Shown one piece after another: positions 41,921 through 64,000 of a DNA stretch of 64,000 nt (its first letter is position 1; each line of letters starts with the position of its first letter). This DNA is from an uncultured Methanospirillum sp. Its GTDB lineage: Archaea > Halobacteriota > Methanomicrobia > Methanomicrobiales > Methanospirillaceae. Below the pieces are notes generated by a model. It was given only the letters and a program-made list of their open reading frames with translations. It searched no databases and was not told the DNA's origin. The stretch spans positions 3,407,986-3,471,985 of the forward strand of contig OY764544.1 in the NCBI GenBank assembly GCA_963668475.1, given 5' to 3'. The translations under genes were made by a program, and so were the position numbers.

Positions 41921-41926
41921 TCAATA

Positions 41927-43558
41927 ATGTCAACACAACTTGGTGGGCAGCCGATTTATATTCTTAAACAAGGCAGTTCCCGGAACCGGGGCCGTGATGC
42001 TCAAAGTATGAATATCACCGCTGCAAAGGCGGTTGCTAATGCGGTCCGTACTACACTTGGCCCGAAAGGGATGGATAAAATGCTTGTCGATTCGATAGGC
42101 GATGTGGTCATCACCAACGATGGATTTACTATCCTCAGTGAGATGGACATTGAACAACCGGCAGCGAAGATGATGGTGGAGATCGCGAAAACTCAGGACA
42201 CTGAAGTTGGCGATGGTACCACCACTGCGGTTGTTATTGCTGGAGAACTTCTCAAGCGTTCCGAAGACCTCATAGAACTTGGAATCCACCCGACTGTTAT
42301 CGTGCAGGGCTACCGGATGGCATCCGAGAAAGCCCAGGATATCCTCAAGGGTTTGGCGATATCAATGAAACCATCTGATACCGGCATACTTAAAAAGATA
42401 GCAGAGACAGCTATGGCTGGGAAAGGTTCAGAATCTGCAAATCTTTTACTCTGTGATCTTGTTTCAACGGCTGTTACCCGTGTCTCCGATTCAGATGGCT
42501 CGGTGGATATTGATAATATCAAGATTGAGAAAAAAGTTGGCGGGTCGATTGAAGACTCAGAAATTATCATGGGTATCGTTCTTGAAAAAGAGAGAGTCCA
42601 CCCGGGTATGCCTACAAAAATTACCAAAGCAAAAATTCTGCTTTTAAACGTTGGAGTTGAGTATAAAAAAACAGAAGTTGACGCTGAGATAACGATCACC
42701 CGGCCTGATCAGATGCAGGCCTTCATAAACGAAGAAGAACGGATGATCAAGAAGATTGCTGATGCGATTATCAAAACCGGAGCTAATGTGGTTATTAGTC
42801 AGAAGGCAATTGAAGACACAGCTCAGCATCAACTTGCAAAGGCTGGAATATTAGCTATCAGGCGGGTCAAAGGCAGTGACATGGACAAACTGGCTCTGGC
42901 TACCGGTGCTACCATTGTTTCAAGTATTGATGAAATATCTGTTAAAGAACTTGGATTTGCCGGGATAGTCGAGGAGCGAAAGATTCTGGGAGATGATATG
43001 ATTTTTATTGAGGAATGTAAAAACCCCAAAGCAGTCTCTATCATCATTCGCGGAGGAACAGAACATGTCATTGCAGAATATGGCCGTGCCATAGAAGATG
43101 CCGTTCGGGTAGTTTCCACTGTTCTTGAGGATAAGAAATTTGTTGCCGGTGGTGGTGCTCCTGAAATTGAGTTGTCTCTCCGTCTCAGGGAATACGGGTC
43201 TTCAGTAGGGGGTCGTGCCCAACTTGCTATCGAAGCCTTTGCTGCGTCGCTTGAGATTATTCCCCGGACTCTTGCAGAAAATGCAGGTCTTGACCCGATT
43301 GATATGATTGTTGCATTACGTGCTGCTCATGAGAAGGGTGAGACAACTTCCGGTCTGAATGTTTTCGAAGGAAAACCCGTGGATATGCTCAAAGAAGGAG
43401 TCATTGAGCCACTCCGGGTTAAAATCCAGGCCATTGTGAGTGCAACAGAAGCAGCAGGTATGATACTGAGAATTGATGATATTATCAAATCTGCAAAATC
43501 AGCAGCTCCGGCAATGCCACCGGGTGGTATGGGGGAGATGGGCGGAATGGGGATGTAA
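41927..43558 (+). CDS. ths: Thermosome subunit (group II chaperonin)
   Basis: [54 protein letters not shown] and a C-terminal GGM-repeat tail. Confidence 0.97.
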
Positions 43559-43750
43559 CTAGTCTCTCTATCAAAATTTACCTTTGTTTTGGTTCAAATT
43601 TGATCAATCCTATTTTCAATTTTTATTTTTGATCACAAGGTATAAGGAGAAGTAAACCTTCTCTCTATCCTAATAATAGAATAATTTTTTTATTTTTTGA
43701 TTTTTGGTTGTTTTTTCGAAAAATTGGAAAAATCGGGGAATTAAGAGGCG

Positions 43751-46700
43751 TTGAAAAAAATTTTTGTTTCTAGAAAAGAACATACGGATAAACTTTCGAA
43801 TCGCGAACAGATTGATAGGGGCCCCCTTCGTGACGAGCTCTTTAGCAGGGATCAACTGGAGAAGCATGCAAAGGAAATTGCAGGGTGCTATCGGGTTGAT
43901 ACCAGAAAAGGGGAGGATCGCCTTCTTCCACGACTTACCGATAATGAGCAGGTCCTGCTAAAAACTCACAAACTCCTCAATACTGTTATAGAAGAAAATT
44001 CTCCGGTTGCTCCTGCAGGTGAATGGCTCCTCGATAATTTTTACCTTGTTGAGGAGCAGATCAGAACCGCTCGTCTGCACCTTCCTGAAGAATACAGCAA
44101 AGAGCTTCCCCACCTCGCGAACGGACCGCTGGAAGGATATCCAAGGGTCTATCATATTGCACGAGAACTCATAGCCCACAGTGACGGCAGGATAGATACC
44201 GAAAACCTCTTTGCTTTTATCGATGCGTATCAACAGGTCACTCCTCTCAAACTTGGTGAACTCTGGGCAATTCCGATCATGTTCAGACTCGCGTTGATCG
44301 AGAATCTACGCAGAGTAGCCGACATTATATCTGAAAACCGGTCTGATCGCGATTCTGCCAATTACTGGGTGGATCGCATGACCCGAATGGCACAGCATGA
44401 TCCAAAAAGTCTCATTCTTGTAATAGCTGATATGGCCCGGTCGGATCCACCCCTGACCAGTGCATTTGTTGCTGAGATGTCACGCCAGTTACAGGGAAGT
44501 TCTGGTCCTCTATTATTTGCTCTTTCATGGATAGAGCAGCGGTTATCTGAAAAAAATCAGACCCCTGAACAGATGATCAGTGCAGAGATCCAGGCTCAGG
44601 CCGCTGATCAGGTCTCTTTTGGGAACAGCATAAGCAGCCTCCGCCTTCTTGATACAAGTGACTGGCGAACTTTTGTAGAACGGCTGAGTATTGTTGAGCA
44701 TACCCTTCGCAGTGATCCGGCAGATGAATATGCAGATATGGATTTTGAGACCCGGGACCGGTATCGCCATGTGGTTGAGGAGATTGCGAGGAATGGCGGG
44801 ATATCGGAAGATCTGGTTGCAGAAAAAGCGGTAGAACTTGCATCACTGGCCCGAAGCAGAGACAAGCAGAACGGAAGGGAGTCCCATCTTGGCTATTATC
44901 TGATAGATGACGGGAGGGAAGCACTGGAGAACGCACTTCTGTATCATGCTTCTGGTATCAGCCAGATCAAGAGATCTGGACTGGCTCATTTCTTTCCCCT
45001 CTATATCGGTGGTATCGTATCCATCACCCTCCTTGTTCTTTATGTTGTATTATCCAGATTCATCTTCTTAGACTGGTTCATTACTCTTCCGATTCTGATA
45101 CTGCTTCTATTTCCTGTCAGTCAGGCAGCAATGAACGTGATGAACTGGGCATGTACCCTGTTTTTCACGCCGGTCTCTCTTCCTAAGATGGACTATTCAA
45201 AAGGGATCCCGGGCAACAGAAGAACTGTCGTGGTTATTCCGACGGTTCTTTCAGGATTTTCAGATATTTCAAAGCTTCTTGATTCACTTGAGGTCAGATT
45301 TCTCGCAAATAAGGAGAAAAATCTCTACTTTACTCTACTTACTGATCTCAAAAATGCCCCTGCAGCACAGATGCCTGAAGATGAAAAACTGGTATCCCTG
45401 CTTTCGAGTGGGATTGAAAACCTGAATGAGAAATACCGGGAAGAAAACCCTGATACCTTTTTTCTCATGCACCGGAACCGTACCTACAGCCCGGGTGAAC
45501 GGATATTCATGGGATACGAACGGAAGAGAGGAATTCTCGAAGCGTTCAGTACCTTCCTGTCAGATCCCAAAGAAAATCAGTTCTCTCATGTCGCCGGCAA
45601 TCCTGATGTTCTTACTGATATCACATACGTGATAACGTTAGATACTGATACAGATCTCCCGAGAAATAGTGCACGAACTCTTATCGGAACGATTGCACAT
45701 CCCCTGAACAGGCCACAGATTGATCCAGAAATCCGGGTGATCAAAAAGGGATACGGAATTCTTCAGCCGCGTGTTGCAATCTCACTCTCTGAGTCAGGAA
45801 TTTCCCGGTTTGTATCACTCTTCGGTGGAGAACAAGGGATAGATCCGTATACCCGTGTCGTATCAGATCTGTACCAGGATGTATTCCATGAAGGATCGTT
45901 TATTGGAAAAGGGATCTATGATCTCGAAACATTTTCCCTGGCAGTGAAAGGCAGGTTTCCGGAAAACCTCATCTTAAGCCATGATCTTCTGGAAGGCTGC
46001 TATGCCAGGACAGGTCTTGTCAGTGATGTACAGGTCTTTGAAGAATATCCTATCAGTTATCTGACTGATATCATCCGGAGACACCGGTGGATTAGAGGCG
46101 ACTGGCAGATTCTCCCCTGGATTTTTTCATCTGTTCCTGACAGTTCATTTAAGAAACAGCAAAATCCCCTCTCTCTTCTCTCGCGGTGGAAGATCTTTGA
46201 TAATCTGAGAAGAAGCCTGATAGCCCCTGTTACCTTTCTCCTGTTTCTTCTTTCATGGACTATTCTAGAGGATTCACTCTTCTGGACTGGGTTTATCATA
46301 TCACTCTTCCTGATTCCCCCAGTAATCATTGTAACTCAAAAAATCATCCGAAAGCCTGGAGAGCATACCTGGAGGATGCATATCCATGATATGGGCCATG
46401 ATCTCCGGGTTCAGATTGCTGTCCCGCTGCTCACCCTTGCTTTCCTCCCCTTTGAAGCATACATCTCTCTTGATGCCATTGTTCGCTCCTGCTGGCGGAT
46501 GACGATCTCTCATCAGAACCTGCTTGAATGGACTACCCACCAGGAAGCAGGACAAATGGGCGTCTCTGATGTTTCAAGTTCATATCGTATTATGTGGCCT
46601 GCACCGGTTATCGGTGCAACATTATTCTTACTCGCAGGCATACTGCCTGTATCTTTCACTTTGTGCTGCATTCCTTTTGCCTGTGCATGGATCCTCTCCC

Positions 46701-49700
46701 CTATAGCAGCCTGGTGGATAAGCCAGCCGATAATATCCCGTACACTACCCCTTTCTCCTGAACAGAACCGATATTTGAGAAGAATTGCACGCAAAACATG
46801 GCGGTTTTTTGAGACTTTTGTCACCGCTGAAGATCATCATCTCCCCCCTGACAACTACCAGGAACAACCGGTTGAGGTTGTTGCTCACCGAACCTCTCCA
46901 ACAGACATCGGCCTTTCTCTCCTTGCAAATCTTACCGCCTATGACTTTGGTTACATTTCTGCTGGTGAGTTTTTGGATCGTACTCACAGTACCCTGACAA
47001 CCATGGGGAAACTGAAGAGATTCCGTGGTCATTTCTACAACTGGTATGACACGATAACATTAGAGCCCCTGCTTCCCAGGTACATCTCCACGGTTGATAG
47101 CGGTAATCTGGTCGGTGATCTGCTGGTGTTACGGCAGGGACTCTATGAACTTCCTGATCTGTCGGTTATTTCACAAAAATATTCCGAAGGGCTCTCTGAT
47201 GTGCTTCATCTCCTCATCGATGCACTGAAAGCGTCTGAAGAGAGCATGGGAGAAGTTCCGGTTCTTGTTCTATCAAAAATTGCGGATCTGAAGGAATCTT
47301 TGTTCCATATACCGGAAACGGCTCCCGAAATCAACCATTCTCTTTCTGATTTAAATGAGATGTCATCAGATCTTCTGGCTGAACTCTGTTCACATCCTGA
47401 TGAAGAAGTCAGGTGGTGGGCAGATGCAACCCGGCGACAGATAAAGAGTCATGAGGCTGAAGTAACCTCCTTTATTTCATGGGTATCCACCGGTTCTCAT
47501 CCTGACACGGTCTTCGATGAGATTCCTGCAGAACTTTCGCCCTCTCTCGCCCTTTTTCTGAAAAAATATGAGTCTCTGAGCAACCACATTCCAACATTTA
47601 GAGAAGAAGCTGATATCATAGAGGTTTTCCAACGTGATCTTGCTCCATTATTGGAGTGGGTTGCTACAGATAAAACTCCAGCCAATACGTCAGGTACCGG
47701 GTACCAATGGCTTGTTCGGACTATGGAAGAGATGCAAATCTCAAGTAAACGTGCCAAAGATCTCCTTTTGATGGTATCAAATCTTGCTGATGAATGTGAA
47801 ACATACTCCGATATTGAGTATGAGTTTCTGTATGATCAAACCAGCAAACTTCTTGCCATCGGGTATAATGCAACAGATCTCAAACGTGATGCCAGTTTTT
47901 ATGATCTCCTGGCATCTGAAGCACGACTTGCCAGTTTTATCGGAATTGCCAGGGGAGACCTTCCCCAGGAGCACTGGTTTGCGTTAGGACGGCTGCTCAC
48001 GACCGTTGGAAAGGGAAGATCAACGCTCATCTCCTGGAGTGGTTCGATGTTTGAATACCTTATGCCACTCCTTCTGATGCCAAATTATGAGAATACTCTT
48101 CTGGATCGCACCTACCGTGCTGTGGTTACCAGGCAGATCGAATATGGAAGACAGAGGAATGTTCCATGGGGGATATCAGAATCAGGCTATAATATCATTG
48201 ATGCAAGCCAGAACTACCAGTACCGTGCATTCGGAGTTCCGGGGCTTGGATTTAAGCGTGGTCTTTCTGAAGATCTGGTCATTGCTCCCTATGCTAGTGT
48301 GATGGGTCTGATGGTTCATCCATCGTTAACCTATATGAATCTGAAGGAGATGGAATCGCTTGGATATTCAGGGACATACGGGTTTTATGAAGCTGTTGAC
48401 TTTACCCCTTCACGAATTCCTCCAGGCCAGAATCATACAATCGTGAAATCCTTCATGGTACATCACCAGGGGATGGCTCTGCTCTCGCTTGCGTATATCC
48501 TTCTTAATCGCCCGATGCAAAGGCGATTTGAATCTGATCCATCCCTTAAGGCAACCCTGATGCTTCTTCAGGAGAAGATGCCCCGAATTACTCCCTTCTA
48601 TCCACATACCGGTGATGTGCAGGGTGTTCATAAGAAGAATGGGGATGCGGAGTCACTCATGCGAATCTTTCAGACTGCACATACACCACGACCTGAAGTA
48701 CACCTTCTCTCGAACGGGCATTACCATGTGATGGTAAATAATAGCGGATCGGGATATAGCAGATGGAACGATCTTGCGGTAACCAGGTGGCGGGAAGATC
48801 CGACCGCAGACAACTTGGGAACCTTCTGTTACATCAGGGATCTTGCAAGTGGAGAGTTCTGGTCAAATGGGTATCAGCCCACAAAAAAGAATCCCGAAAC
48901 CTTTCAAACGACATTTAAACAGGCACGTGCTGAATTCAGAAGACGTGACCGGGAGTTTGATACCCGTACAGAGATCATCGTTTCTCCTGAAGATGATGTG
49001 GAACTTCGACGAATACGGGTAACAAACCGGTCATGGAAACGAAGGACTCTGGAATTTACCAGTTATGCTGAAGTGGTCCTGGCTCCTCAGACATCTGATG
49101 AATCACATCCGGCATTCAGTAACCTGTTTGTTCAGACTGAACTTCTTCAGGAGAAGAATGCAATCATAGCCACAAGAAGGCCACGATCAGAGGATGAAAA
49201 GCCGCCATGGATGCTTCATCTCATGACTGTTCATGGCACCGTGGTTCGAAAGATCTCATTCGAGACAGTCAGGGCTAATTTTATCGGGAGGACAAATTCT
49301 CTCTCAAATCCTGCTGCCATGACTGATTCATCTGTCCTTTCAAACTCATCAGGTTCTGTGCTTGATCCCGTGGTTGCGATCAGATGTACTATCATACTGG
49401 ATCCACAGGAGACTGCAGGGGTGAATATTTTCACCGGAGTTAGTGAGAGCCGGGATAAATCGGTCGCCCTTGTTGACAAGTATTATGACAGTTACATCGC
49501 TGATCGTGTCTCCGAGCTTGCCTGGACACATGCTCAGGTTGTACTCAAACAATTGAATGCAACAGAGAGGGATGCCCGACTGTTTGGGAGTCTTGCTTCA
49601 TCGATTATCTATGCTCATCCTTCGCGTAGGGCGAGCCAGAAGGTACTGGAAAAGAACTCCCGTGGGCAGTCAGGTCTGTGGGGGTATGGAATATCAGGAG

Positions 49701-52537
49701 ACGTACCCATAGTTCTGGTGCGAATTCAACATCAGAGCGGGATTGGTCTGATAAAAGAGATGGTTCAGGCCCATGAGTACTGGCGAATAAAAGGCCTGAT
49801 GGTTGATCTGGTGATCTGGAATGAGGAACAGTCAGGTTACAGGCAGGAACTGCATGATGAGATCATGCGTCAGATTCCCCAGGGTTCTGATCATCCCCAA
49901 TTAAATCAGAAAGGGGGCATCTTCATACGACATATGGAACAGATGTCAGATGAGGATCGTATCCTGATTCAGACCGTGGCACGGGCAATAATTTCTGATC
50001 GGAGGGGCAGTCTTGCGATACAACTCGACCGGCCTGGCTGGATTGTAACTCCTGTACCTGAACTTATCCCAACCAGGGAATCAATTCATGAGAATGATCC
50101 AGGGATCAGCATTTCTGGTGAAGACCTTCTCTATTTCAACGATATTGGGGGATTTTCGCCTGATGGAAAGGAGTACATCATCTTCACCGGGAAAGGAAAG
50201 GTAACTCCGGCACCCTGGGTAAATGTCCTGGCAAATGAGAATTTTGGGACCGTGATATCAGAGAGTGGGAGTGCTTACACCTGGAGTGAGAATGCCCATG
50301 AGTTCAGACTTACTCCCTGGACAAACGATCCGGTCTCTGATCCCTCTGGTGAGGCCCTGTATATCAGGGATGAAGAAACCGGTAGGTTCTGGTCTCCAAC
50401 TCCCTTACCCGTCAGAGGGCATAACAATTATAAAACCAGGCATGGATTTGGCTATTCAATCTTTGAATACTCAGGATATGGGATTTATACCACACTAACA
50501 GTCTCTGTATCGCTTGATAATCAGGTAAAATTCCTCTCTCTCCGTGTGAAGAATCAGTCAGGACAGTCCCGTATCCTCTCGGTAACCTGCTATGTTGAAT
50601 GGGTTTTAGGAGAACTCAGGTCTCGATCACTGCCCTATGTAATATCAGAGATAGATCCGGTTACCGGAGCAATCTTTGCTAAAAATCCATATAATTCTGA
50701 ATTTCCTGGACGGGTTGCCTTTCTTGACTCAAATGTCCTAAGCAGAACTATTACCGGCGACCGGTATGAATTCATCGGGCGGAACCGTTCGATGGAAAAA
50801 CCTGCAGCAATGGAGCAGGAACGGCTCTCCAACAAAGTCGGAGCAGGTCTTGACCCGTGTGCGGCTCTCCAGGTCTTATGTGACCTAGTCGATGGTGAGG
50901 AACGTGAGATCATCTTTACCCTCGGACTCGGTCGTGATGAGGAAGATGCACGAAGTCTTGTTCTCCGCAGTCGCGGGATTACAACTGCACGTGCATCACT
51001 GAAAGCGGTACAGGAGTTCTGGGCATCAACGCTTGGTGCTGTGAATATTGCGACACCTGATCCCTCTGTGGATCTTCTTGTCAACGGGTGGCTTCTCTAT
51101 CAGACTATTGTCTCCCGCCTCTGGGCACGTTCTGGTTTTTATCAGTCAGGAGGAGCGTTTGGATTTCGGGATCAACTACAGGATGTGATGGCTCTTATCC
51201 ATGCTAAACCAGATCTTGCAAGAAGACAGATCCTCCTCTGTGCCGGGCATCAGTTTTCAGAAGGTGATGTGCAGCACTGGTGGCATCCGCCTATTGGTCG
51301 TGGAGTGAGGACTCACTGTTCTGATGATTATTTATGGCTCCCGTATGTAACCTCTAGGTATGTAACCGGGACCCGTGATTTTGGGATTCTTGACGAAATG
51401 GCTCCTTTTCTTGAAGGGAGAGAACTACTCCCTGACGAGGACTCATATTATGATCTCCCTGGAATCTCCGGATCAGCAGATACGCTCTATGAACATTGTG
51501 TCCGGGCCATCAGGTCAGGACTGATGGTTGGTGTTCATGGCCTTCCGTTGATGGGAACCGGAGACTGGAACGATGGAATGAATCTTGTCGGGGCAGGAGG
51601 GCAGGGAGAGAGTGTATGGCTCGGATTTTTCCTCTATGATCTGCTTACACGGTTTGCCAGGATCTCTACGCTTCACAACGATCCAAAATTTGCAGAATAT
51701 TGCCAGGTATATGCTGATCAGTTGAGGGAAAGCCTTGAGAAAAATGGGTGGGACGGGGAATGGTACCGCCGTGCCTATTTCGATTCAGGACAGCCACTCG
51801 GATCTTCAATCAATCAGGAATGCAGGATAGATTCAATCGCCCAGAGTTGGTCTGTCCTCTCGGGTGCTGGATCAACAGAGAGGACTGTCTCTGCAATGAA
51901 AGCAGTAGGCACTCATCTTATCAGATCCGATGATGGGCTGGTATCTCTCTTTACCCCTCCGTTTGATTCATCGCTCATGAATCCCGGGTACATTAAAGGA
52001 TATGTGCCCGGCGTCAGAGAAAACGGAGGGCATTACTCCCATGCAGCCATCTGGGTTGCAATGGCATTTGCTATGCTAAAGGATCACGAACAGGCCTGGA
52101 AACTGCTGTCGTTTATCAGCCCGATTAATCATTGTAAAACTCATCATGATGTTCTAAAATACCGGGTTGAGCCGTATGTTGTTGCATCTGATATCTATAC
52201 TGCTCCTCCCTACTCAGGACGTGGAGGCTGGACCTGGTATTCTGGATCTGCCGGCTGGATGTATACACTGATTATTGAATCTCTACTCGGACTTGAGATA
52301 CATGGCGATCAAATGGCATTCAATCCCTGTATCCCTGAGGTCTGGAAATCATACCGGATTTATTTAAGATACAAGTCTTCCAGATATCATATCTCTGTCA
52401 TAAAGGCCGGTCCGGGATCAGCAGTAAAATCGGTGAGTGTTGAGGGAAAAACTCAGTCTGATAAAATGGTACATCTTGTTGATGATGGGGGGGATCGTCA
52501 GGTTGTGGTAGAGCTTGGTGATACATCCCTATTATAG
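43751..52537 (+). CDS. ndvB: Cyclic beta-1,2-glucan synthase homolog (GT84, cyclisation/glycoamylase-like domain, GH94 phosphorylase)
   Basis: 2928 aa. Motifs EWLLDNFYL, GYERKRG.L, YVITLDTDT, LSHDLLEG, RRHRWIRGDWQ, membrane segments, YDLLASEARL, SWSGSMFEYLMP, PWG.SES, QSGGAFGFRDQLQD, GTGDWNDGMN, ENGG.YSHAA.W and GGWTWYSGSAGW. Confidence 0.95.
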   Translation: MKKIFVSRKEHTDKLSNREQIDRGPLRDELFSRDQLEKHAKEIAGCYRVDTRKGEDRLLPRLTDNEQVLLKTHKLLNTVIEENSPVAPAGEWLLDNFYLVEEQIRTARLHLPEEYSKELPHLANGPLEGYPRVYHIARELIAHSDGRIDTENLFAFIDAYQQVTPLKLGELWAIPIMFRLALIENLRRVADIISENRSDRDSANYWVDRMTRMAQHDPKSLILVIADMARSDPPLTSAFVAEMSRQLQGSSGPLLFALSWIEQRLSEKNQTPEQMISAEIQAQAADQVSFGNSISSLRLLDTSDWRTFVERLSIVEHTLRSDPADEYADMDFETRDRYRHVVEEIARNGGISEDLVAEKAVELASLARSRDKQNGRESHLGYYLIDDGREALENALLYHASGISQIKRSGLAHFFPLYIGGIVSITLLVLYVVLSRFIFLDWFITLPILILLLFPVSQAAMNVMNWACTLFFTPVSLPKMDYSKGIPGNRRTVVVIPTVLSGFSDISKLLDSLEVRFLANKEKNLYFTLLTDLKNAPAAQMPEDEKLVSLLSSGIENLNEKYREENPDTFFLMHRNRTYSPGERIFMGYERKRGILEAFSTFLSDPKENQFSHVAGNPDVLTDITYVITLDTDTDLPRNSARTLIGTIAHPLNRPQIDPEIRVIKKGYGILQPRVAISLSESGISRFVSLFGGEQGIDPYTRVVSDLYQDVFHEGSFIGKGIYDLETFSLAVKGRFPENLILSHDLLEGCYARTGLVSDVQVFEEYPISYLTDIIRRHRWIRGDWQILPWIFSSVPDSSFKKQQNPLSLLSRWKIFDNLRRSLIAPVTFLLFLLSWTILEDSLFWTGFIISLFLIPPVIIVTQKIIRKPGEHTWRMHIHDMGHDLRVQIAVPLLTLAFLPFEAYISLDAIVRSCWRMTISHQNLLEWTTHQEAGQMGVSDVSSSYRIMWPAPVIGATLFLLAGILPVSFTLCCIPFACAWILSPIAAWWISQPIISRTLPLSPEQNRYLRRIARKTWRFFETFVTAEDHHLPPDNYQEQPVEVVAHRTSPTDIGLSLLANLTAYDFGYISAGEFLDRTHSTLTTMGKLKRFRGHFYNWYDTITLEPLLPRYISTVDSGNLVGDLLVLRQGLYELPDLSVISQKYSEGLSDVLHLLIDALKASEESMGEVPVLVLSKIADLKESLFHIPETAPEINHSLSDLNEMSSDLLAELCSHPDEEVRWWADATRRQIKSHEAEVTSFISWVSTGSHPDTVFDEIPAELSPSLALFLKKYESLSNHIPTFREEADIIEVFQRDLAPLLEWVATDKTPANTSGTGYQWLVRTMEEMQISSKRAKDLLLMVSNLADECETYSDIEYEFLYDQTSKLLAIGYNATDLKRDASFYDLLASEARLASFIGIARGDLPQEHWFALGRLLTTVGKGRSTLISWSGSMFEYLMPLLLMPNYENTLLDRTYRAVVTRQIEYGRQRNVPWGISESGYNIIDASQNYQYRAFGVPGLGFKRGLSEDLVIAPYASVMGLMVHPSLTYMNLKEMESLGYSGTYGFYEAVDFTPSRIPPGQNHTIVKSFMVHHQGMALLSLAYILLNRPMQRRFESDPSLKATLMLLQEKMPRITPFYPHTGDVQGVHKKNGDAESLMRIFQTAHTPRPEVHLLSNGHYHVMVNNSGSGYSRWNDLAVTRWREDPTADNLGTFCYIRDLASGEFWSNGYQPTKKNPETFQTTFKQARAEFRRRDREFDTRTEIIVSPEDDVELRRIRVTNRSWKRRTLEFTSYAEVVLAPQTSDESHPAFSNLFVQTELLQEKNAIIATRRPRSEDEKPPWMLHLMTVHGTVVRKISFETVRANFIGRTNSLSNPAAMTDSSVLSNSSGSVLDPVVAIRCTIILDPQETAGVNIFTGVSESRDKSVALVDKYYDSYIADRVSELAWTHAQVVLKQLNATERDARLFGSLASSIIYAHPSRRASQKVLEKNSRGQSGLWGYGISGDVPIVLVRIQHQSGIGLIKEMVQAHEYWRIKGLMVDLVIWNEEQSGYRQELHDEIMRQIPQGSDHPQLNQKGGIFIRHMEQMSDEDRILIQTVARAIISDRRGSLAIQLDRPGWIVTPVPELIPTRESIHENDPGISISGEDLLYFNDIGGFSPDGKEYIIFTGKGKVTPAPWVNVLANENFGTVISESGSAYTWSENAHEFRLTPWTNDPVSDPSGEALYIRDEETGRFWSPTPLPVRGHNNYKTRHGFGYSIFEYSGYGIYTTLTVSVSLDNQVKFLSLRVKNQSGQSRILSVTCYVEWVLGELRSRSLPYVISEIDPVTGAIFAKNPYNSEFPGRVAFLDSNVLSRTITGDRYEFIGRNRSMEKPAAMEQERLSNKVGAGLDPCAALQVLCDLVDGEEREIIFTLGLGRDEEDARSLVLRSRGITTARASLKAVQEFWASTLGAVNIATPDPSVDLLVNGWLLYQTIVSRLWARSGFYQSGGAFGFRDQLQDVMALIHAKPDLARRQILLCAGHQFSEGDVQHWWHPPIGRGVRTHCSDDYLWLPYVTSRYVTGTRDFGILDEMAPFLEGRELLPDEDSYYDLPGISGSADTLYEHCVRAIRSGLMVGVHGLPLMGTGDWNDGMNLVGAGGQGESVWLGFFLYDLLTRFARISTLHNDPKFAEYCQVYADQLRESLEKNGWDGEWYRRAYFDSGQPLGSSINQECRIDSIAQSWSVLSGAGSTERTVSAMKAVGTHLIRSDDGLVSLFTPPFDSSLMNPGYIKGYVPGVRENGGHYSHAAIWVAMAFAMLKDHEQAWKLLSFISPINHCKTHHDVLKYRVEPYVVASDIYTAPPYSGRGGWTWYSGSAGWMYTLIIESLLGLEIHGDQMAFNPCIPEVWKSYRIYLRYKSSRYHISVIKAGPGSAVKSVSVEGKTQSDKMVHLVDDGGDRQVVVELGDTSLL

Positions 52538-53659
52538 AGAATAGTGCAAAACCCTCTTTTTTATCTAAGTGCGTAGAATAATAAGTATGAATTTTACATC
52601 ATTTTTCCTTTCTCAAAACTATCAAAAAGTAGCTGCACTCGGAAATCGTTTAGGGCTAATTGAAGAAATAATCGATTGGGAGCAATTCAGGCCAATTATC
52701 GGAGATATTTTCAATGATGACCTTATTGATGGTGGTAGACCCCATACAGATGAGATAATTTTGATCAAACTTTTAGTTCTTCAACAGTGGCATGGACTCA
52801 CTGATTACGAATTAGAAATCCAAGCCCTCGATAGGGCATCTTTCCAACATTTTTTGGGTTATCCTGAATCAATTCCGGATCGATCTACTATTTGGAGATT
52901 CCGAGAGAGATTGATCAAAAACAACAAGGAAGAGGCAATATGGATGGAACTTCAGAGACAGATAGATGAAAGGGGTTTAACCATTAAACGAGGTATGATT
53001 CAAGATGCTACATTTATCCTTTCTGATCCGGGCCATGCTAAATCGGATAAACCACGAGGTGATGAAGCGAAAACGAGAAGATCGAAAGATGGAACTTGGG
53101 TAAAGAAAGGTCAAAAATCACACTTTGGGTATAAACTCCATACAATAGTTGATAAAGAAACTCAACTTATACGACGGTTTGCTACGACTACAGCAAGTCT
53201 ACATGATAGCCAGATCGACCTTTCTGAACCTGGTGAAACTGTATATCGAGATCGAGGTTACTTTGGTACAACTGTGAGGGGCTCAATGGATAAAACAATG
53301 AAGAAAGCAACTCGTAATCACCCAATCTCTACCAAAGACAAACGAAGAAATAAAGCAATATCAAGGGTTCGTTCTCTTGTTGAAAGGCCATATGCAGTGA
53401 TTAAAAGAGTCTTCCATGCTGGTCATATGATGGTAACAACAGTTGAGAGAGTCAACCTAAAAAATATGTTTACGTGCTTTTCTTATGACCTATATCGGAT
53501 GAGTGGAATTCAACAAAGTTGATTGGATAGCGATAGCTATCTTCTTCCAGCCGGACAAATTTTAAATAAAAGCACATTTAGTCATTTTTTCTTAAAAAAT
53601 CAAACGTCTGAATAAGATCTCAAAAAAGTTATGGTAATCTGGGGTTAATCGCTATCCTC
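52537..53659 (+). mobile_element. Complete IS5-family insertion sequence, 1123 bp, with a 4-bp TATA target-site duplication
   Basis: Imperfect TIRs GAGAATAGTGCAAAACCC / GGGTTAATCGCTATCCTC (13/18). TATA at 52533-52536 and 53660-53663. Confidence 0.9.
52587..53522 (+). CDS. IS5-family DDE transposase
   Basis: GGRP......KLL.LQQW.GL.D.ELE....DR.SF..FLG....IPD.STIWRFRERL; catalytic IQDATF, YRDRGY and RSLVERP. Confidence 0.95.
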   Translation: MNFTSFFLSQNYQKVAALGNRLGLIEEIIDWEQFRPIIGDIFNDDLIDGGRPHTDEIILIKLLVLQQWHGLTDYELEIQALDRASFQHFLGYPESIPDRSTIWRFRERLIKNNKEEAIWMELQRQIDERGLTIKRGMIQDATFILSDPGHAKSDKPRGDEAKTRRSKDGTWVKKGQKSHFGYKLHTIVDKETQLIRRFATTTASLHDSQIDLSEPGETVYRDRGYFGTTVRGSMDKTMKKATRNHPISTKDKRRNKAISRVRSLVERPYAVIKRVFHAGHMMVTTVERVNLKNMFTCFSYDLYRMSGIQQS

Positions 53660-53753
53660 TATAATTGAGATCCCTGGCTTATGTTCTGATATTCTGGATG
53701 TGGTGCCAAAAATGATGAAAAAAGAACATTCATGCAATGATGATCTGTATTGA

Positions 53754-54307: not shown

Positions 54308-54787
54308 ATGAAAACGCTTGATCAGATAAAATCGTATAAACCTGAAGAAATTAGTTGGGTTGACTTCGTAATGGTATTACTAATCTTCTTCTCCATGACC
54401 TCTTTTATCTTTATTGGAATATTAAACCTGGTTTCTGTGTACATGTCTATCTTTGTATTTTTTAGTGGGCTTGACGGACCAATAACTGATACCCGAATAT
54501 TAGGAATTATTAGTACAACTCTTTTGACGATCATAATTGTAGAACTCTATATAACTGTAAAAGAACTTAAAAATGGTAATATTGATATTAAACTGATTTT
54601 AATTATTGGGTTGACTGCAATAATCAGACATTTTATACTGTTGATATCGCAGGATTTTAGTGAAAAGGATGTATTTGCCATGATTGGACTTGCAGTTGTT
54701 ATGATGTTGTTTATATTCGGGTTATGGATTGTCAAAAGTAGAAATATTGATAGTATCTCCAATATCTGGGCCCCTGTCAAAAAATAA
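54308..54787 (+). CDS. PsiE (phosphate-starvation-inducible E)-family membrane protein
   Basis: Four TM helices and the motif LL.II..EL..TV......I....IL.I.L.AIIR..I; strongly AT-rich. Confidence 0.75.
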   Translation: MKTLDQIKSYKPEEISWVDFVMVLLIFFSMTSFIFIGILNLVSVYMSIFVFFSGLDGPITDTRILGIISTTLLTIIIVELYITVKELKNGNIDIKLILIIGLTAIIRHFILLISQDFSEKDVFAMIGLAVVMMLFIFGLWIVKSRNIDSISNIWAPVKK

Positions 54788-54800
54788 AATAGTTACAGGT

Positions 54801-58938: not shown

Positions 58939-61914
58939 GTGTTGAGTACTACACGAGGCAATAGAACCAAATCAGGATTCAACAATTCGACAGTTCCATA
59001 TCAATCAATTAGTACGGAATCAATCAGTATCGTACCATTCAAACTACAAATCTCCTCTCATGACTCAAGAAGAATGCAAACCAGGAAAGATACGATGAAA
59101 ACAGGGAATCCCGACGAGGGACATGGGGGTGGTTCACTTCAGGATATTGCTATCGAAAAGATCAACAACTCTTCAAAAATTCTGAATTCTCTACCTGAAA
59201 AGACATCGGAAGAACTGATGTATGATCTGCAGGTACATCACGTTGAATTAGAGATACAGGCTGAGGACCTCAGGCAGGCACATCTAACAATAGAGGAGTC
59301 CCGCGATAAGTACCTTGATCTTTATGATTTCGCTCCGGTTGGATATATTACACTCACACATATGGCAATAATCTCAGAGGCTAACCTTACTGCTGCAACT
59401 CTTCTCCGTGTCGACAGGAAAAAACTGATTCATTCCCGGTTCAGATCCTGGATAGATCCACAGGAGAGAGATATCTGGGATACGTATATGGTGAATCTGC
59501 TCCGATCAGATGCGAAACAAACCGTTACCTGCCTGTTCAGGCGTAGTGATGGAACTGTCTTTCCTGCGAGGCTGGAGGGCATTAACCTCACACAAAATTT
59601 TCATAATCAATCGATAAGGATAGCAATCAGTGATATTTCTGATCTTAAAAAGACAGAAGACGAGTTAAAGGAAAGTCAGGATCGTTTCAGGCTTGCGATA
59701 CAAAATGCTCATGTATCGGTAGCTATTCAGGATACGGACCTTGTTTTTCAGTGGGGATATAATCAGCAGATCATACAGAATGAAGAGATCAAAGGAAAGA
59801 AAGATACTGATCTTTTCACTCAGGAAGATGCACACCATCTGATAGACCTCAAACGCAGGGTTCTTGAAACCGGGGAAGAAGTCCATGAAAAAATGTGGAT
59901 GACCATTCAGGGGAAACGAATATTTCTTGAACTCAACCTACAACCCATCCATGACGAAAAAGGGTGTATCACCGGTATCGGCACCGCAACCCTTGACCTT
60001 ACTGAGCAAAAACTGATTGAAGATGCATTAAGGCACAGCGAAGAAAATCTTCAGCAGACTCAGGAGATACTGGAAGCGGTCACGAAAGGAACTGAGGTAC
60101 TCATCGCTGCACAAGACATACATTTTCGCTATATTTTTTTCAATCAAGCATATAAAGAGGAGATGAAGCGACGGACCGGGAAAGATCTGACATTAGGCTC
60201 CAGCATGATAGACTTGTTTGTAGAAGATCCGCATGGAAAAAATGTGACCGTGCAGGAATGGAGACAGGTGCTTCAGGGTGAAAATGTAAACAAGGAGGTG
60301 GAATTTGGAGAACCAGGTACGGAAAGAAGAGTCTATCATACCCTGTACACTCCCATTCGGGATGCCCTGGGATCTATCATCGGAGCCGGAGAAGTCGCGT
60401 ATGATGTCACCAACCAGGTGTTGATGGATGAAAAATTGCGGGAGACAAAGGATTATCTGGATAATCTCATTACCTCTGCCAGCGCTCCTATTATTGTCTG
60501 GGACCCGGATTTCAGAATAAGGCTATTCAACCGTGCATTCGAACAGTTAACCGGGAAACCGGCTCAGGAAGTTATCGGAAAACGACTTGAGATTCTGTTT
60601 CATGAGCGGTATCTTGCTTCGGTAATGAATCTCATCAAAAGAACGAAGGAAGGAGAACGGTGGGAAAGTGTTGAGATTCCAATTCTACATAAAAATGGTG
60701 AGAACAGAACCGTACTCTGGAATTCGGCATCTATTTTTGGTTCTGATGGAAAAACCCTCGTTTCAACAATCGCCCAGGGGCAGGATATCACCGATCGGAA
60801 AAAAATTGAATCTGAATTCAGACTCCGGGCTACCGAATATGAGAAACTGAATGAGACATTAAACGAGGAGATCAGGCAACGTATACGAACAGATACCACA
60901 CTAAAAAAAACTCTTTCTCTCCTGAATGCATCGCTTGAATCAACCGCAGATGGGATTTTTGTAATCGATCAAGAAGGAAAAATCTCGAGTTATAATCAGA
61001 ATTTTGCATCCATGTGGAATATTCCCCGGAGTATCCTGGAGTCCGGAGAAGCTCATAAAGTACTGGATGTAATACTACCACAAATTAAAACACCTGAAAA
61101 ATTTGCTGACACCATAACCAATTTTCATTCACATCCAACTCGTGAAAGTTTTGATATGATTGAATTTATCGACGGGAAGATCTTTGAACGTTATTCAAAA
61201 CCCCAAATTATCGGCGATGTTGTAGTTGGGAGGGTCTGGAGTTTTCGTGATATTACTGATCGAAAACGTGCAGAAAGAAAACTGGTAGCCTCATTACAGG
61301 AGAAAGAGGTTCTTCTTCGGGAGATCCATCACCGTGTCAAGAACAATCTCCAGTTGATATCTGGCCTTCTTGATATGACCCGGATGAGGACAGATGATGA
61401 TTCTATCTACAGTATTCTGACTGATATGATGCTCAAGATTCAGACCATGGCTCAGATCCATACCAGACTCTATGAAAGCAAGCAGTTTGGCAAGATCAAT
61501 ATCACAGATCAGATCCGGGATCAGTCAAAAGCATTATCTAATATATATTCCAATGAAGGGCATGAGATAACCTGCGAAATTCAGCCGAATGAAATTTTTC
61601 TTCCGGTAGATCTGGCACTTCCCTGTGCCCTGGTTGTAAACGAGATTCTCTCGAATGCGTATAAACACGCATTTATCGGAAGAGAGACGGGCACAATTGA
61701 CATAGCGGTGGAAGAGAAGGATGGAAGCATCAGGATTTCGATACGTGACAATGGAATCGGGATACCAGATCCAGAAGAGATCAGTCGTTCAAACAGTCTC
61801 GGGGTGAAGTTAATCAGGACTCTGGTTCAGCATCAGCTCAAGGGTTCCCTGATTATTACAAGTGTTCAGGGAACGCATGTACTGGTAGAATTCCCGTATC
61901 TCGCAAAGGAATAA
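58939..61914 (+). CDS. Cytoplasmic 5xPAS histidine kinase, HisKA_2 type; true start probably 59074 or 59095
   Basis: DLQVH.VELE.Q.E.LR coiled coil, YDFAPVGY.TL PAS; H-box LLREIHHRVKNNLQ; NEILSNAYKHAF; DNGIG; SLG..LI..LV. Confidence 0.93.
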   Translation: MLSTTRGNRTKSGFNNSTVPYQSISTESISIVPFKLQISSHDSRRMQTRKDTMKTGNPDEGHGGGSLQDIAIEKINNSSKILNSLPEKTSEELMYDLQVHHVELEIQAEDLRQAHLTIEESRDKYLDLYDFAPVGYITLTHMAIISEANLTAATLLRVDRKKLIHSRFRSWIDPQERDIWDTYMVNLLRSDAKQTVTCLFRRSDGTVFPARLEGINLTQNFHNQSIRIAISDISDLKKTEDELKESQDRFRLAIQNAHVSVAIQDTDLVFQWGYNQQIIQNEEIKGKKDTDLFTQEDAHHLIDLKRRVLETGEEVHEKMWMTIQGKRIFLELNLQPIHDEKGCITGIGTATLDLTEQKLIEDALRHSEENLQQTQEILEAVTKGTEVLIAAQDIHFRYIFFNQAYKEEMKRRTGKDLTLGSSMIDLFVEDPHGKNVTVQEWRQVLQGENVNKEVEFGEPGTERRVYHTLYTPIRDALGSIIGAGEVAYDVTNQVLMDEKLRETKDYLDNLITSASAPIIVWDPDFRIRLFNRAFEQLTGKPAQEVIGKRLEILFHERYLASVMNLIKRTKEGERWESVEIPILHKNGENRTVLWNSASIFGSDGKTLVSTIAQGQDITDRKKIESEFRLRATEYEKLNETLNEEIRQRIRTDTTLKKTLSLLNASLESTADGIFVIDQEGKISSYNQNFASMWNIPRSILESGEAHKVLDVILPQIKTPEKFADTITNFHSHPTRESFDMIEFIDGKIFERYSKPQIIGDVVVGRVWSFRDITDRKRAERKLVASLQEKEVLLREIHHRVKNNLQLISGLLDMTRMRTDDDSIYSILTDMMLKIQTMAQIHTRLYESKQFGKINITDQIRDQSKALSNIYSNEGHEITCEIQPNEIFLPVDLALPCALVVNEILSNAYKHAFIGRETGTIDIAVEEKDGSIRISIRDNGIGIPDPEEISRSNSLGVKLIRTLVQHQLKGSLIITSVQGTHVLVEFPYLAKE

Positions 61915-63273
61915 TTGCCCATGTCAAAAATTCTCATTGTTGATGATGAAGCGATCATCACCATGCAACTTGAAGAGCGCCTTAGTGCAATGGGATATGA
62001 TGTGGCGGGTATGGCTGCCTCTGGTGAAGAGAGCATCGAGAAAGCGAGACGGTTGGGACCCGATCTTATTTTGATGGATATCGTGATGCCTGGAAAGATG
62101 AATGGCATTGATGCAGCAAAAATCATTACCACTGAATTACATATCCCTGTTGTTTTTATCACTGCATATGCAGATGATGCCATCATCGCGAAAGCAAAGA
62201 GCGTACGACCCTATGGATATATTGTCAAGCCCTTCAACGAACTGGAGATAAAAGCTGCTATTGAAGTAGCATTATTTCGCAGATCAGCAGAGCAGGAAGA
62301 AGAGAGATCAATCAAATCGATTCACCGGACAATTCCTTCATCGTCTGATTCTGACCATATTGATGGAGATGATCTGACCTATCTGGATCAACCAGAGATA
62401 AAAACCGTGTTACTGGAAGATATTTTTACTGATATCATGCTCTTTCTGTATACGGATCAGGCTGAGAAAGATCCCATCTTTAAATTCGCATTAGAGGAAG
62501 GGATAAAGAAAGGTGGACGCAATCTGTTTGCATACTCACATTCAACACTTCAGAAATACTTTCCCAAAGAGATTCAAAGTCACAAACTTTACATTCACCG
62601 GATAAAAACCAACGAACTCTATACACTACCACCTGTTTTGGAAAAATGCACCGATTCGCTTCTCTATGAAGGCTCAAAAGAATCACTCCACATACTGATT
62701 GATTTTTCAGAAACCGAAGAATTTGATGATATTATTGCCATTAAAAATCTGCTTCTTGATAAAAAGAAGAGTGGAACCCTCATATCAGGGATGTTCGCCC
62801 TTAATATCGGGAAAATTGATCATACGCTGATAAAAATTCTCGCAGAAGGGATCTCCAGAATCATTGTATCTACTGGCAAAGAGACTACCCTTTCATTTGC
62901 CCACCATACCTATCCGGTTGATTCTCTATCAGTTGTCCCCCAATCTACTATTGATGATGTAGTAAAAAAATTACTTGAGCCTGTAGTCCTTTCTCTTCTG
63001 GATAAGCCTGTGTCAGGATTTGATATTGTTCATGAGATTCATAACAGGTATCAGGTTTTAATTCCTCAGGCACGGGTGTACACCCTCCTCCATGACCTGC
63101 TTGAGAATGGCCATCTTGAGATACGGATCTCAGGAAAATCAAAGTTATATTGTCCAACTCAGAAAGGAAAAATCCACATCAGTCAGAAACTTAATGATTT
63201 TAAAAAAGTATTTGAGCATATATTGGGTGAAGAAAGGGAATTACCCACAAATAACACAGATTCAAGGATGTAA
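61915..63273 (+). CDS. Response regulator: REC, MEDS/KaiC-like central domain and PadR-type winged HTH (ATG at 61921)
   Basis: REC IVDDE, DLILMDIVMPG, FITAY and KPF; C-terminal LEPVVLSLL..PVSGFDIV.EI..RY.VLI.Q.RVY.LL..L..NG.L......KSKLY..T.KG; starts directly after the kinase stop. Confidence 0.88.
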   Translation: MPMSKILIVDDEAIITMQLEERLSAMGYDVAGMAASGEESIEKARRLGPDLILMDIVMPGKMNGIDAAKIITTELHIPVVFITAYADDAIIAKAKSVRPYGYIVKPFNELEIKAAIEVALFRRSAEQEEERSIKSIHRTIPSSSDSDHIDGDDLTYLDQPEIKTVLLEDIFTDIMLFLYTDQAEKDPIFKFALEEGIKKGGRNLFAYSHSTLQKYFPKEIQSHKLYIHRIKTNELYTLPPVLEKCTDSLLYEGSKESLHILIDFSETEEFDDIIAIKNLLLDKKKSGTLISGMFALNIGKIDHTLIKILAEGISRIIVSTGKETTLSFAHHTYPVDSLSVVPQSTIDDVVKKLLEPVVLSLLDKPVSGFDIVHEIHNRYQVLIPQARVYTLLHDLLENGHLEIRISGKSKLYCPTQKGKIHISQKLNDFKKVFEHILGEERELPTNNTDSRM

Positions 63274-63822
63274 CGAACATCCTATTCTCACCAGATTCAT
63301 CGAAAAGACTCCACACTTATAGTATCAGGACCAGATCCTGCTTTTCATCGTTCATTGATGAATCAAAAAATGAAACAAGATTTGTATCATGTAGTCAGGT
63401 TTATCCCGTTTCATATAATGGATATAAATGGGTACAAGGATACCTGCAAGAGGAGAACCTTCCCCATTGAGGAAATACAAACCTTGTCTGACCATGCGAA
63501 ACTGACATATCAATCCTACATTATGTCATACTCAAAAAGCAGTAGAAAGATCTCAACTTACATATATGAGATTTTCTTTTACATTCACCCGGATATCCAT
63601 GATACGATATCAGGAAGTAACCAGCATGTTCAGATCAGCATGTGAGTACTTCATTGCCATTTCCCCGGGTAATGTGTTACATACCTGTTTCAATTGGGTA
63701 GTTCTCCTCCTGTTTGTTATATAATCGGCAATTAATCCTGGACTAAACTGACGTGAATTAAAATGTACAGCATGATACCGACTGTTTGATGTTGGTGCAG
63801 AATACCGGAAAATTTGGAACAT

Positions 63823-64000
63823 ATGAAGTCATTCAACATAACCGAGCCCTCTACGAGACTCATAGATGAAGAAACATCTGTTCGGATCCTTACGATTCTG
63901 CCTGATATCGACGAAGAAAAGATCAGGATTGATCTTGAAAATAATGCATCACTTGTTACCATAACGGCATCAGGTGCCAGAGTTCAGTATCAGAAAACAA
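63823..64000 (+). CDS. Hsp20/alpha-crystallin-like protein, 5' part (runs out of the window)
   Basis: EP....IDEE..VRI...LP.IDEEKI.I.LE.....VTITA.......Y.K matches the small heat-shock protein beta-sandwich start. Confidence 0.65.
   Translation, partial: MKSFNITEPSTRLIDEETSVRILTILPDIDEEKIRIDLENNASLVTITASGARVQYQKT

Follow-up and report, generated by a model that had tools for sequence, protein, structure and literature searches.

In a 64-kb stretch of DNA from an uncultured Methanospirillum (contig OY764544.1; hereafter the window), a histidine kinase gene and a response regulator gene lie just upstream of a small heat-shock gene, and the spacer before that gene carries tandem GTTTCA repeats that recur before chaperone genes in related methanogens. 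The original prediction, made from the sequence alone, had placed these genes in a single stress and osmoadaptation module. This was to be a partly bacterial island joining a thermosome subunit, a cyclic glucan synthase (Cgs), a PsiE-family protein, a fused CheB-CheR (CheBR) kinase, a divergently encoded kinase with five PAS domains, a REC-X-PadR regulator, and an Hsp20-like protein. All seven genes were found at or near the predicted positions by open reading frame (ORF) listing and Pfam scans. By comparing ~100 related loci for synteny, we find the prediction partly supported, in that the listed genes are real but appear to form a mosaic of three layers rather than one module or island. We regard this mosaic as the best explanation and give it slightly better than an even chance.

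The first layer would be a two-component stress system kept across Methanoregula, Methanospirillum, and Methanolinea relatives. Here, the multi-PAS kinase would phosphorylate the regulator encoded 6 nt downstream of it in the window, and the regulator would bind the GTTTCA repeats just upstream of promoters. Its targets would be a ~255-nt RNA or leader, a mini alpha-crystallin gene, a gene for an 82-aa protein together with grpE, dnaK, dnaJ, and hsp20, and, in relatives, an Fe/Mn superoxide dismutase (SOD). The signal is probably redox, oxygen, or proteotoxic stress. In the second layer, the divergently encoded CheBR kinase most likely tunes either itself or kinases that carry a particular sequence segment (below) by reversible glutamate methylation. 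The third layer would consist of cgs, psiE, and the thermosome gene (ths) as motif-free neighbors in Methanospirillum-like lineages only. The cgs gene would have been acquired from bacteria well before these lineages split, and the activity of insertion sequences (IS) would have reshuffled the region.

A conserved kinase-regulator pair upstream of chaperone genes

We fetched 80 loci around relatives of the regulator (47–92% identity; Methanoregula, Methanospirillum, and Methanolinea) and searched them with the window proteins. In 62 of the 74 loci with enough DNA, a kinase gene in the same orientation immediately precedes the regulator gene. The start on record for the kinase is at 59095, giving a 939-aa product that matches Pfam HisKA_2 (72 bits) and HATPase_c (46.9 bits). 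The predicted count of five PAS domains proved approximate, with Pfam and NCBIfam giving four to five PAS stretches. For the regulator, the start on record is the ATG at 61921, while the product of a TTG start gave no exact match. Its receiver domain is clear (Response_reg, 83.4 bits), and the acidic pocket, made up of the N-terminal DDE and the Asp of LMDIVMPG, is invariant among 30 homologues. By their domains and adjacency, the two proteins are a two-component pair, with phosphotransfer predicted from sequence.

Downstream of the regulator, a mini alpha-crystallin gene was present in 49 of 68 loci, grpE in 24 of 62, and dnaK in 21 of 55. In contigs with an identical regulator, in M. lacunae, and in a Methanospirillum metagenome-assembled genome (MAG; L004, where L numbers are our handles for compared loci), the run past the window end is the 94-aa mini alpha-crystallin gene, the 82-aa gene, grpE, dnaK, dnaJ, and a gene for a protein of 157–159 aa. 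For this last protein, Pfam HSP20 was matched by the M. stamsii copy (28.9 bits) and by that of a Methanoregula relative (41.2 bits) but not by the L004 copy. The regulator locus occurs two or three times in several MAGs, which accounts for the dnaK operon following only some of the loci. The 82-aa protein, which is encoded between the mini-Hsp20 gene and grpE at L001 12274–12522 and in 19 related loci, had no Pfam or NCBIfam match. Farther along in Methanoregula, genes for an Fe/Mn SOD, an encapsulin (Linocin_M18), and a ferritin/rubrerythrin-like protein are often found a few kb past the dnaK operon (examples: L036 6686–7336; L057 5831–6625; L009 20378–20737). A further case is L286, from 20907 onward.

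The predicted Hsp20-like identity of the mini protein holds at the level of its alpha-crystallin domain. A profile of 13 homologues matches the 90-aa small heat-shock protein (sHSP) 4rzk (E = 6.7e-14) and the alpha-crystallin domain of M. jannaschii HSP16.5. Against the NCBIfam archaeal Hsp20 model, the match reached E = 7e-11 and 42 bits, for a cut-off of 140, and it spans positions 71–150 of the 162-position Hsp20 model. Pfam HSP20 gave weak matches in 10 of the 13 homologues and none for the window copy. Moreover, the I-x-I anchor was not seen in the C-terminal LEKTLPNLSQNQP, and the N-terminal arm is also absent from this 94-aa protein. With both arms missing, “Hsp20-like” is therefore fair only as a name for the alpha-crystallin domain alone.

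Tandem GTTTCA repeats before the heat-shock genes

We compared k-mers between 58 intergenic regions downstream of the regulator and 58 coding controls from the same loci. The sequence TTGTTTCAAA occurred in 26 of the intergenic regions and a single control, GTTTCAAAAT in 22 and no controls, and CAAAATTTG in 22 and one control. Instances of the motif are tandem GTTTCA units with a 12-nt period. They fall at two places: site i, on the minus strand 100–470 nt past the regulator stop codon, and site ii, on the plus strand ~900–1100 nt past it, just before the 82-aa gene and grpE.

A weight matrix trained on Methanoregula loci alone recovered site i of the window with a score of 24.9, which is the sole strong match in 64 kb (shuffled sequences gave 0.3 matches at a threshold of 12). 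This site lies ~75 nt upstream of the RNA start described below. Beyond the window, site ii upstream of the 82-aa gene in L001 scored 27.9, and syntenic sites were present in L003, L164, L253, L285, and L056. A third cluster, absent from the training data, lies 4.5–6.5 kb downstream, before hsp20 and ~100 nt upstream of SOD (15 instances), at a density of 26–76 matches per 100 kb vs. a background of ~4. A site upstream of SOD was also found in L286, and the sharing of the motif by SOD points to an oxidative-stress arm of the regulon. The position of the motif upstream of the TATA box suggests activation, and the regulator is its putative binder.

By contrast, ths, cgs, psiE, and the CheBR and kinase genes have no matrix match before them in the window. 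The shared-motif search proposed with the original prediction thus came out in its favor for the heat-shock genes and against it for ths and cgs. In M. stamsii, the dnaK locus has no regulator, and no motif was found in the ~34 kb read.

Several weaker matches were also seen. Scores of 15.2 at 42903–42932 (+), inside the ths coding sequence, and 12.3 at 19113–19142 (+), at the start of the ORF at 19125–20678, probably reflect chance. A GTTTCA-like unit, TTTCAAAATTTGTAAA, stands midway between the CheBR and kinase genes and is a possible half-site, not significant alone, with one match to the pattern TCAAAWTTTGW vs. 0.53 expected; its counterpart in M. lacunae (L164 9726–9755) is conserved, with a matrix score of 14.7. 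Other candidates were set aside. Most 9-mers common to the upstream regions of the window were AT-rich and due to chance. Neither a MAFFT alignment of 59 upstream regions nor exact k-mer counts limited to the region upstream of the mini-Hsp20 gene was informative.

A structured RNA before the mini-Hsp20 gene

The 550-nt spacer between the regulator and mini-Hsp20 genes contains a block shared by four Methanospirillum genomes, in which indels disrupt every reading frame. In four independent metatranscriptomes, contigs (95–99% identical) cover 63448–63708 only, with none on the flanking genes. They begin at 63448 or 63452 and end at 63665–63708, three of the four ends falling between 63699 and 63708. 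A TATA-like ATATAAAT at 63422–63429, ~26 nt before 63450, and a T-run at 63704–63711 suggest a plus-strand RNA of ~255 nt. Overall, the RNA is conserved across five Methanospirillum-like genomes, in all of which the helix closing its 5′ and 3′ ends is kept. Its predicted fold has a minimum free energy of −74.3 kcal/mol (z = −4.77; 0 of 200 shuffles).

Rfam 15 returned no family for this RNA (best E = 0.21, 20 bits vs. a gathering score of 45), and a covariance model built for it found nothing convincing outside Methanospirillum-like genomes. A weak match to the model (22.8 bits) lies in Methanoregula (L182 4050–4352), flanked by a mini-Hsp20 gene and a CheBR gene. A single metagenome scan with a 20-nt pattern taken from the RNA gave 31 chance matches, none fitting the model.

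Rather than a separate RNA, the 63448–63708 transcript could belong to the mini-Hsp20 mRNA as its 5′ leader, either processed or attenuated (an attenuator responding to temperature or to a ligand is one such case), and we consider this a serious possibility at somewhat below an even chance. In Methanoregula (L007), the contigs from four peat runs start ~350 nt ahead of the mini-Hsp20 ATG, ~100 nt past site i, indicating that a long leader is general, and one contig there (6041–6522) extends through the leader and on into the gene without interruption. The T-run at which the window RNA ends stands 115 nt ahead of the ATG, and the closing helix of this RNA is long and includes GGAGG and CCUCC. 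However, the window contigs in all four runs stop at 63665–63708 and leave the gene uncovered, and a second TATA-like box, TTATATAA at 63712–63719, could drive the mini-Hsp20 gene independently.

Architecture of the regulator

The predicted REC-X-PadR architecture was confirmed for the receiver, while the PadR match of the window protein is sub-threshold (23.4–24.1 bits, for a Pfam cut-off of 27). Yet homologues pass the cut-off (L082, 32.2 bits; L077, 28.7 bits; L067, 36.0 bits), and precomputed PF03551 is on record for nearly all relatives of the regulator. Because Foldseek matches to the full-length model were swamped by the receiver, the structure was re-predicted without it, and the AlphaFold model of residues 156–450 (mean pLDDT 70) was compared with PDB. 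In this model, the middle domain (pLDDT 62–90 per 10-residue block, mostly 75–90) takes a predicted RecA/KaiC-like alpha/beta fold, with the archaeal KaiC-like protein FlaH as its best match (4yds, E = 1.3e-6) and further matches to T7 gp4, KaiC, RecA, and Rad51 paralogues. The C-terminal domain, a winged helix at pLDDT ~65–85, matched the PadR-fold structures 4esf, 3hhh, 5h20, and 6abq and Halobacterium RosR (6qfd), with target-normalized TM scores of 0.56–0.77 and E of about 1e-5.

Pfam KaiC, DUF835, and MEDS gave no match in the regulator, and its C-terminal 329 aa found no match in PDB by sequence. The Walker A motif (GxxxxGK[ST]) is absent from the window protein and 29 homologues, the sequence after the first strand being LFLYTDQAEKDPIFKF. 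We therefore treat the middle domain as an inactivated KaiC-like domain and not as an ATPase. This domain probably drives oligomerization of the regulator. The unit of KaiC-like and PadR domains also occurs without a receiver, in ~290–310-aa proteins of Methanoplanus endosymbiosus and one Thermoplasmatota MAG (P0250, P0252, P0257, P0266, P0268, and P0277); an all-against-library search with the X-PadR part gave only 211 clusters, these proteins among them. A REC-xxx-HTH/PadR architecture is recorded for Mboo_1488 and Mboo_1528 of M. boonei, with no function given (PMC5847659 supplement), so the architecture has already been catalogued. Our literature search found no account of the middle domain or of the regulator's function.

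The CheB-CheR kinase and its partner segment

The CheBR kinase contains CheB_methylest (191 bits), CheR (171 bits), and CheR_N (55 bits) domains, and it matches CheR and CheB structures in PDB at E = 1e-25 to 1e-28. It carries the sequences GASAGG, GTGTDG, and GCATGEE, which we take to be the catalytic and S-adenosylmethionine motifs. The enzyme domains are followed by a Glu-rich heptad coiled coil of NEELxSTNEEL repeats. The protein is 87% identical in M. lacunae and 67% identical in M. stamsii.

The original prediction had pointed to a segment of the PAS kinase, LQVH...YDFAPVGY, as a frequent companion of CheBR fusions. The segment is literally present in the N-terminal coiled-coil/PAS region of the kinase (59227–59346, with LQVHHVELEIQAEDL at 59227 and LYDFAPVGY at 59320), and the predicted link is borne out in archaea. 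Using the pattern LY[DE]FAPVGY with LYEFAP variants included, we found the segment in 16 of 23 archaeal CheBR loci, or 7.5 matches per 100 kb. This compares with 14 of 80 regulator loci (1.2 per 100 kb), 6 of 55 bacterial CheBR loci (0.7 per 100 kb), and, among the matches listed, 2 of 80 bacterial cgs loci (0.17 per 100 kb), both of which hold a CheBR gene. The segment sits in separate genes, usually the next gene after CheBR on the same strand, and all Methanospirillum-like kinases paired with this regulator carry it. In L056, the one regulator locus of the 80 with a CheB-CheR gene, CheBR, a segment-bearing gene, and the regulator are tightly packed, with gaps of 21 and 5 nt. From this distribution, a functional tie of CheBR to this class of kinases can reasonably be inferred, and the segment-bearing kinases would be candidate methylation targets.

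No CheA or CheW was seen among the genes annotated in 29–64 kb, although no search was aimed at them. The sole methyl-accepting chemotaxis protein (MCP) among those genes is encoded at 31231–33315 (−; 4HB_MCP, HAMP, and MCPsignal), ~21 kb upstream of the CheBR gene, and is followed by a winged-helix-PAS protein at 33437–34708 (+).

Origin and neighborhood of cgs

The cgs product aligns colinearly, in two stretches (2014 bits), with the Agrobacterium Cgs of known structure (8rf0/8rf9), and it also matches the cyclization domain 8wy1 (445 bits) and GH94 phosphorylases (250–290 bits) in PDB. It is a predicted cyclic glucan synthase, a single polypeptide of the ~2800–2900-aa type. In a ranked protein search, an archaeal clade at 61–89% identity (named members: Methanospirillum species, Methanospirillaceae, Methanoplanus endosymbiosus, and Methanosphaerula palustris) was followed by bacteria at ~55% (e.g., Syntrophales, NC10, and Desulfobaccales). 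A genome scan with Cgs was used solely for bacterial neighborhoods, among the matches listed, and not for ranking relatives. The archaeal clade and the drop to bacteria suggest that cgs is bacterial in origin but old, and its presence in several Methanomicrobiales genera argues against a recent island. Of the predicted bacterial-derived island, the bacterial source of cgs is supported; the IS element alone is strain-specific. GC content is 0.46–0.49 in cgs, 0.41–0.44 in the flanks, and 0.36–0.39 around the IS and psiE.

The IS element has inverted repeats at 52525–52554 and 53642–53671 and a transposase at 52569–53522. It sits in the last codons of cgs, supplying the final codons and stop, and separates cgs from psiE. 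M. lacunae Ki8-1, the closest cultured relative of the window, has the identical gene order minus the IS, which is not at this site there. The sequence GGGTTTAATCGCCATCCTCT has two matches in the window (41369–41388 and, at the IS end, 53641–53660), where 0.09 are expected by chance, so that ths and cgs are flanked by two like-oriented IS ends. Given this second copy ahead of ths, IS activity may have shuffled the region. Between the IS and psiE, the Cys-rich 93-aa ORF has a possible counterpart in L252, a called 93-aa gene at the same position and strand (sequences not compared). Conservation is unusually high over all of the ~550 nt preceding psiE.

Gene orders around cgs are listed in Table 1. 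The psiE gene is retained close by in M. lacunae, M. stamsii, L003, and L252, and ths is again near the dnaK operon in M. stamsii, on the other strand. Among the 80 regulator loci, however, neither ths nor cgs was found and psiE occurred once. Linkage of cgs to the locus is real within the genus and survives several rearrangements but stops at the genus border. In bacteria, a CheBR-type gene lay within 10 kb of cgs in 3 of 80 loci among the matches listed (L087, L141, and L157), which is suggestive but weak. A few kb from cgs in Methanosphaerula palustris (L248 26638–28118) are the unrelated KwaA and KwaB of Kiwa defence and a UvrD/PD-(D/E)XK helicase-nuclease.

Table 1. Gene order at cgs and kinase-regulator loci (strand given where minus)
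Genome or locus	Gene order	Remark
Window and M. lacunae	ths, cgs, psiE, CheBR gene (−), kinase, regulator, chaperone genes	
M. stamsii	ths (−), psiE (−), grpE, dnaK, dnaJ, hsp20, cgs, CheBR gene	Without kinase and regulator
L253	cgs, kinase, regulator, mini-Hsp20 gene	cgs directly before kinase, 139 nt
L287	cgs, kinase, regulator ... dnaJ ... CheBR gene	cgs to kinase, 360 nt
L286	cgs, binding-protein gene, kinase, regulator ... SOD	
L252	cgs, psiE, then unrelated genes	
L251	Different kinase and REC-glycosyltransferase upstream of cgs	Strong motif right after cgs
L250, Methanosphaerula palustris, Methanoplanus endosymbiosus	cgs	None of these genes nearby
L004 and L285	Kinase, regulator, chaperone locus	Without cgs

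Table 2. Features of the window discussed in the text
Feature	Coordinates	Strand	Basis
Solo IS right-end repeat, GGGTTTAATCGCCATCCTCT	41369–41388	+	~510 nt before ths
Thermosome subunit (group II chaperonin), ths	41897–43558	+	Pfam Cpn60_TCP1, 605 bits, E = 1e-181
cgs (Cgs, 2928 aa)	43751–52537	+	Pfam GH94 domains and Glycoamylase
IS5-family element	52525–53671	+	Pfam DDE_Tnp_1 and DUF772; 30-nt terminal inverted repeats
Cys-rich small ORF, 93 aa	53754–54035	−	No Pfam match; conserved with M. lacunae
PsiE-family membrane protein	54308–54787	+	Pfam PsiE, 39.1 bits (cut-off 23.9)
CheB-CheR-Glu-rich coiled coil-PAS_10-PAS-HATPase fusion, 1211 aa	54801–58436	−	Pfam
Weak palindromic single unit, TTTCAAAATTTGTAAA	58762–58777		Intergenic region of CheBR and kinase genes
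Cytoplasmic multi-PAS histidine kinase	59095 (or 58939)–61914	+	Pfam HisKA_2 and HATPase_c
Response regulator, REC with predicted inactivated KaiC/RecA-like domain and PadR-like winged helix	61921–63273	+	Pfam, AlphaFold, Foldseek
Site i, tandem GTTTCA repeats, candidate operator	63361–63390	−	Matrix score 24.9
~255-nt structured RNA	63448–63708	+ (inferred)	Metatranscriptome contigs, fold, conservation
Minimal alpha-crystallin-domain gene, 94 aa	63823–64000 (ends 64107 in L001)	+	Profile match to 4rzk

Weighing the explanations

The linkage between signaling and chaperone genes in the original prediction is supported by the synteny of the regulator loci and by the shared cis motif, and control of the chaperone genes by the signaling genes is plausible. 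The same control extended to cgs and ths is unsupported beyond their genus-level proximity. A single integrated stress and osmoadaptation island, in which the CheBR kinase, PAS kinase, and REC-PadR regulator jointly control cgs, the thermosome, and the small heat-shock genes, is in our view unlikely. It would account for the clustering of ths, psiE, cgs, the CheBR gene, and the dnaK operon in M. stamsii in a quite different order. It also fits the placement of cgs directly upstream of the kinase-regulator pair in L253 and L287, as well as its position in L286, the return of the CheBR gene downstream of dnaJ in L287, and the three bacterial cgs loci with a CheBR-type gene. Yet in the window, ths, cgs, psiE, and the CheBR gene all lack a GTTTCA-repeat site before them, nor is there one anywhere in the M. 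stamsii locus, and both ths and cgs are missing from all 80 regulator loci (Methanoregula and its relatives). Moreover, cgs is unlinked in Methanosphaerula palustris, Methanoplanus endosymbiosus, and L250, while L004 has neither cgs nor a CheBR gene within 7–10 kb, and linkage confined to a single genus can stem from common descent and not from selection. An intermediate version is doubtful but not as improbable: a PAS kinase with CheB-CheR-adapted input would drive a REC-iKaiC-PadR regulator that assembles on the GTTTCA repeats and turns on a regulon (the bacterial-type DnaK system, two sHSPs, SOD, and the hitherto unannotated RNA) of a kind not described in archaea, with the horizontally acquired cgs recruited as an envelope or osmotic arm in Methanospirillum. 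Least probable of all, we think, is adjacency without regulatory meaning, in which some other factor binds the repeats, or they serve as a promoter element peculiar to stress genes, and the two-component system has unrelated targets. The strong motif of L251, where the regulator is not nearby, and the direct repeats, which are atypical for PadR proteins, would fit such a reading, as would the rarity of DNA-binding response regulators in archaea, where they are mostly uncharacterized (PMC5847659). Against it, the order of kinase, regulator, site i, mini alpha-crystallin gene, and site ii is kept from 92% down to 47% regulator identity, and the M. stamsii dnaK locus, which is missing the regulator, is missing the motif too.

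The three-layer mosaic, which we prefer, also has evidence weighing against it. The candidate operator comes from sequence comparison, and it is a direct repeat, whereas PadR proteins usually bind inverted repeats. In L251, the strong motif has no regulator within 10 kb. Only ~40% of regulator loci lead into grpE-dnaK, and the targets of the different copies may differ. There is no motif upstream of the kinase gene, so autoregulation is not indicated. The adjacency of cgs to the locus in at least six Methanospirillum-like lineages, despite rearrangements, is awkward for a mere neighbor. For the RNA, the metatranscriptome contigs are strandless and could include DNA, and covariation in the fold is weak, the covariation term being positive with five sequences.

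Comparison with known systems

In Euryarchaeota, the winged-helix regulators Phr of Pyrococcus and HSR1 of Archaeoglobus control small heat-shock and other chaperone genes. These differ from the present regulator in having no receiver, KaiC-like domain, or partner kinase, and they are heat-released repressors whose sites overlap promoters, whereas the motif here is a direct repeat upstream of the TATA box. No Phr entry stood among the 50 listed Foldseek matches of the regulator modeled without its receiver. With the PadR family and RosR, an oxidative-stress regulator of Halobacterium, the present protein shares the winged-helix fold, and the SOD link parallels the role of RosR. However, the domain here is fused to a receiver and a KaiC-like domain, and the candidate operator is a tandem repeat, not a palindrome.

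Bacterial dnaK operons are regulated by HspR at HAIR and HrcA at CIRCE sites, and RNA thermometers such as ROSE and fourU lie upstream of sHSP genes. The present locus resembles the HspR and HrcA systems in having a regulator beside a dnaK operon with repeated candidate operators, and it resembles the thermometers in having a structured RNA before an sHSP gene. It differs in that the protein families and motif are unrelated and no Rfam family covers the RNA. Compared with bacterial Cgs, the protein here is colinear over its full length, with GH94 and cyclization domains, but its host is an archaeon without an outer membrane, and there was no ChvA/Cgt-type exporter gene in the annotated part of the window. 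Similarly, both catalytic domains of chemotaxis CheB and CheR are present in the CheBR kinase but are fused to PAS and kinase modules.

Among methanogens, LtrK/LtrR of Methanococcoides burtonii, which is temperature-responsive, and FilI/FilR1 of Methanothrix also pair a kinase with a helix-turn-helix (HTH) response regulator (PMC5847659). These systems differ in their output domains and in domain order (HTH-REC or wHTH-DUF1724-REC), they lack a KaiC-like domain, and they have not been reported in connection with dnaK or hsp20. Archaeal iKaiC signaling domains occur as REC-DUF835, iKaiC-REC, and MEDS, and KaiC-like domains have been proposed to act in archaeal signaling (PMC5847659). Like these, the middle domain here has a predicted RecA/KaiC fold without the ATPase motif and is fused to a receiver, but unlike them, it is followed by a winged helix. 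Our literature search for this kinase-regulator stress system, cgs in archaea, CheB-CheR-PAS fusions, and archaeal RNA thermometers returned nothing specific.

Implications

To our knowledge, the regulation of the bacterial-type DnaK, GrpE, and DnaJ genes and of small heat-shock genes in methanogens is not settled, and the archaeal heat-shock regulators that we know of come from hyperthermophiles. The locus described here is a testable candidate, with a kinase-regulator pair, a motif before dnaK, two sHSP genes, and SOD, and an expressed structured RNA. It would assign a function to one of the rare archaeal DNA-binding response regulators and to an inactivated KaiC-like domain, and it suggests that CheB/CheR methylation also serves outside chemotaxis. 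Less important is cgs, an old bacterial gene retained in some methanogens, where its role is putative. Methanoregula and Methanospirillum were recovered here from samples of peat, fen, and wastewater, and how well they tolerate oxygen and swings in temperature bears on methane emission.

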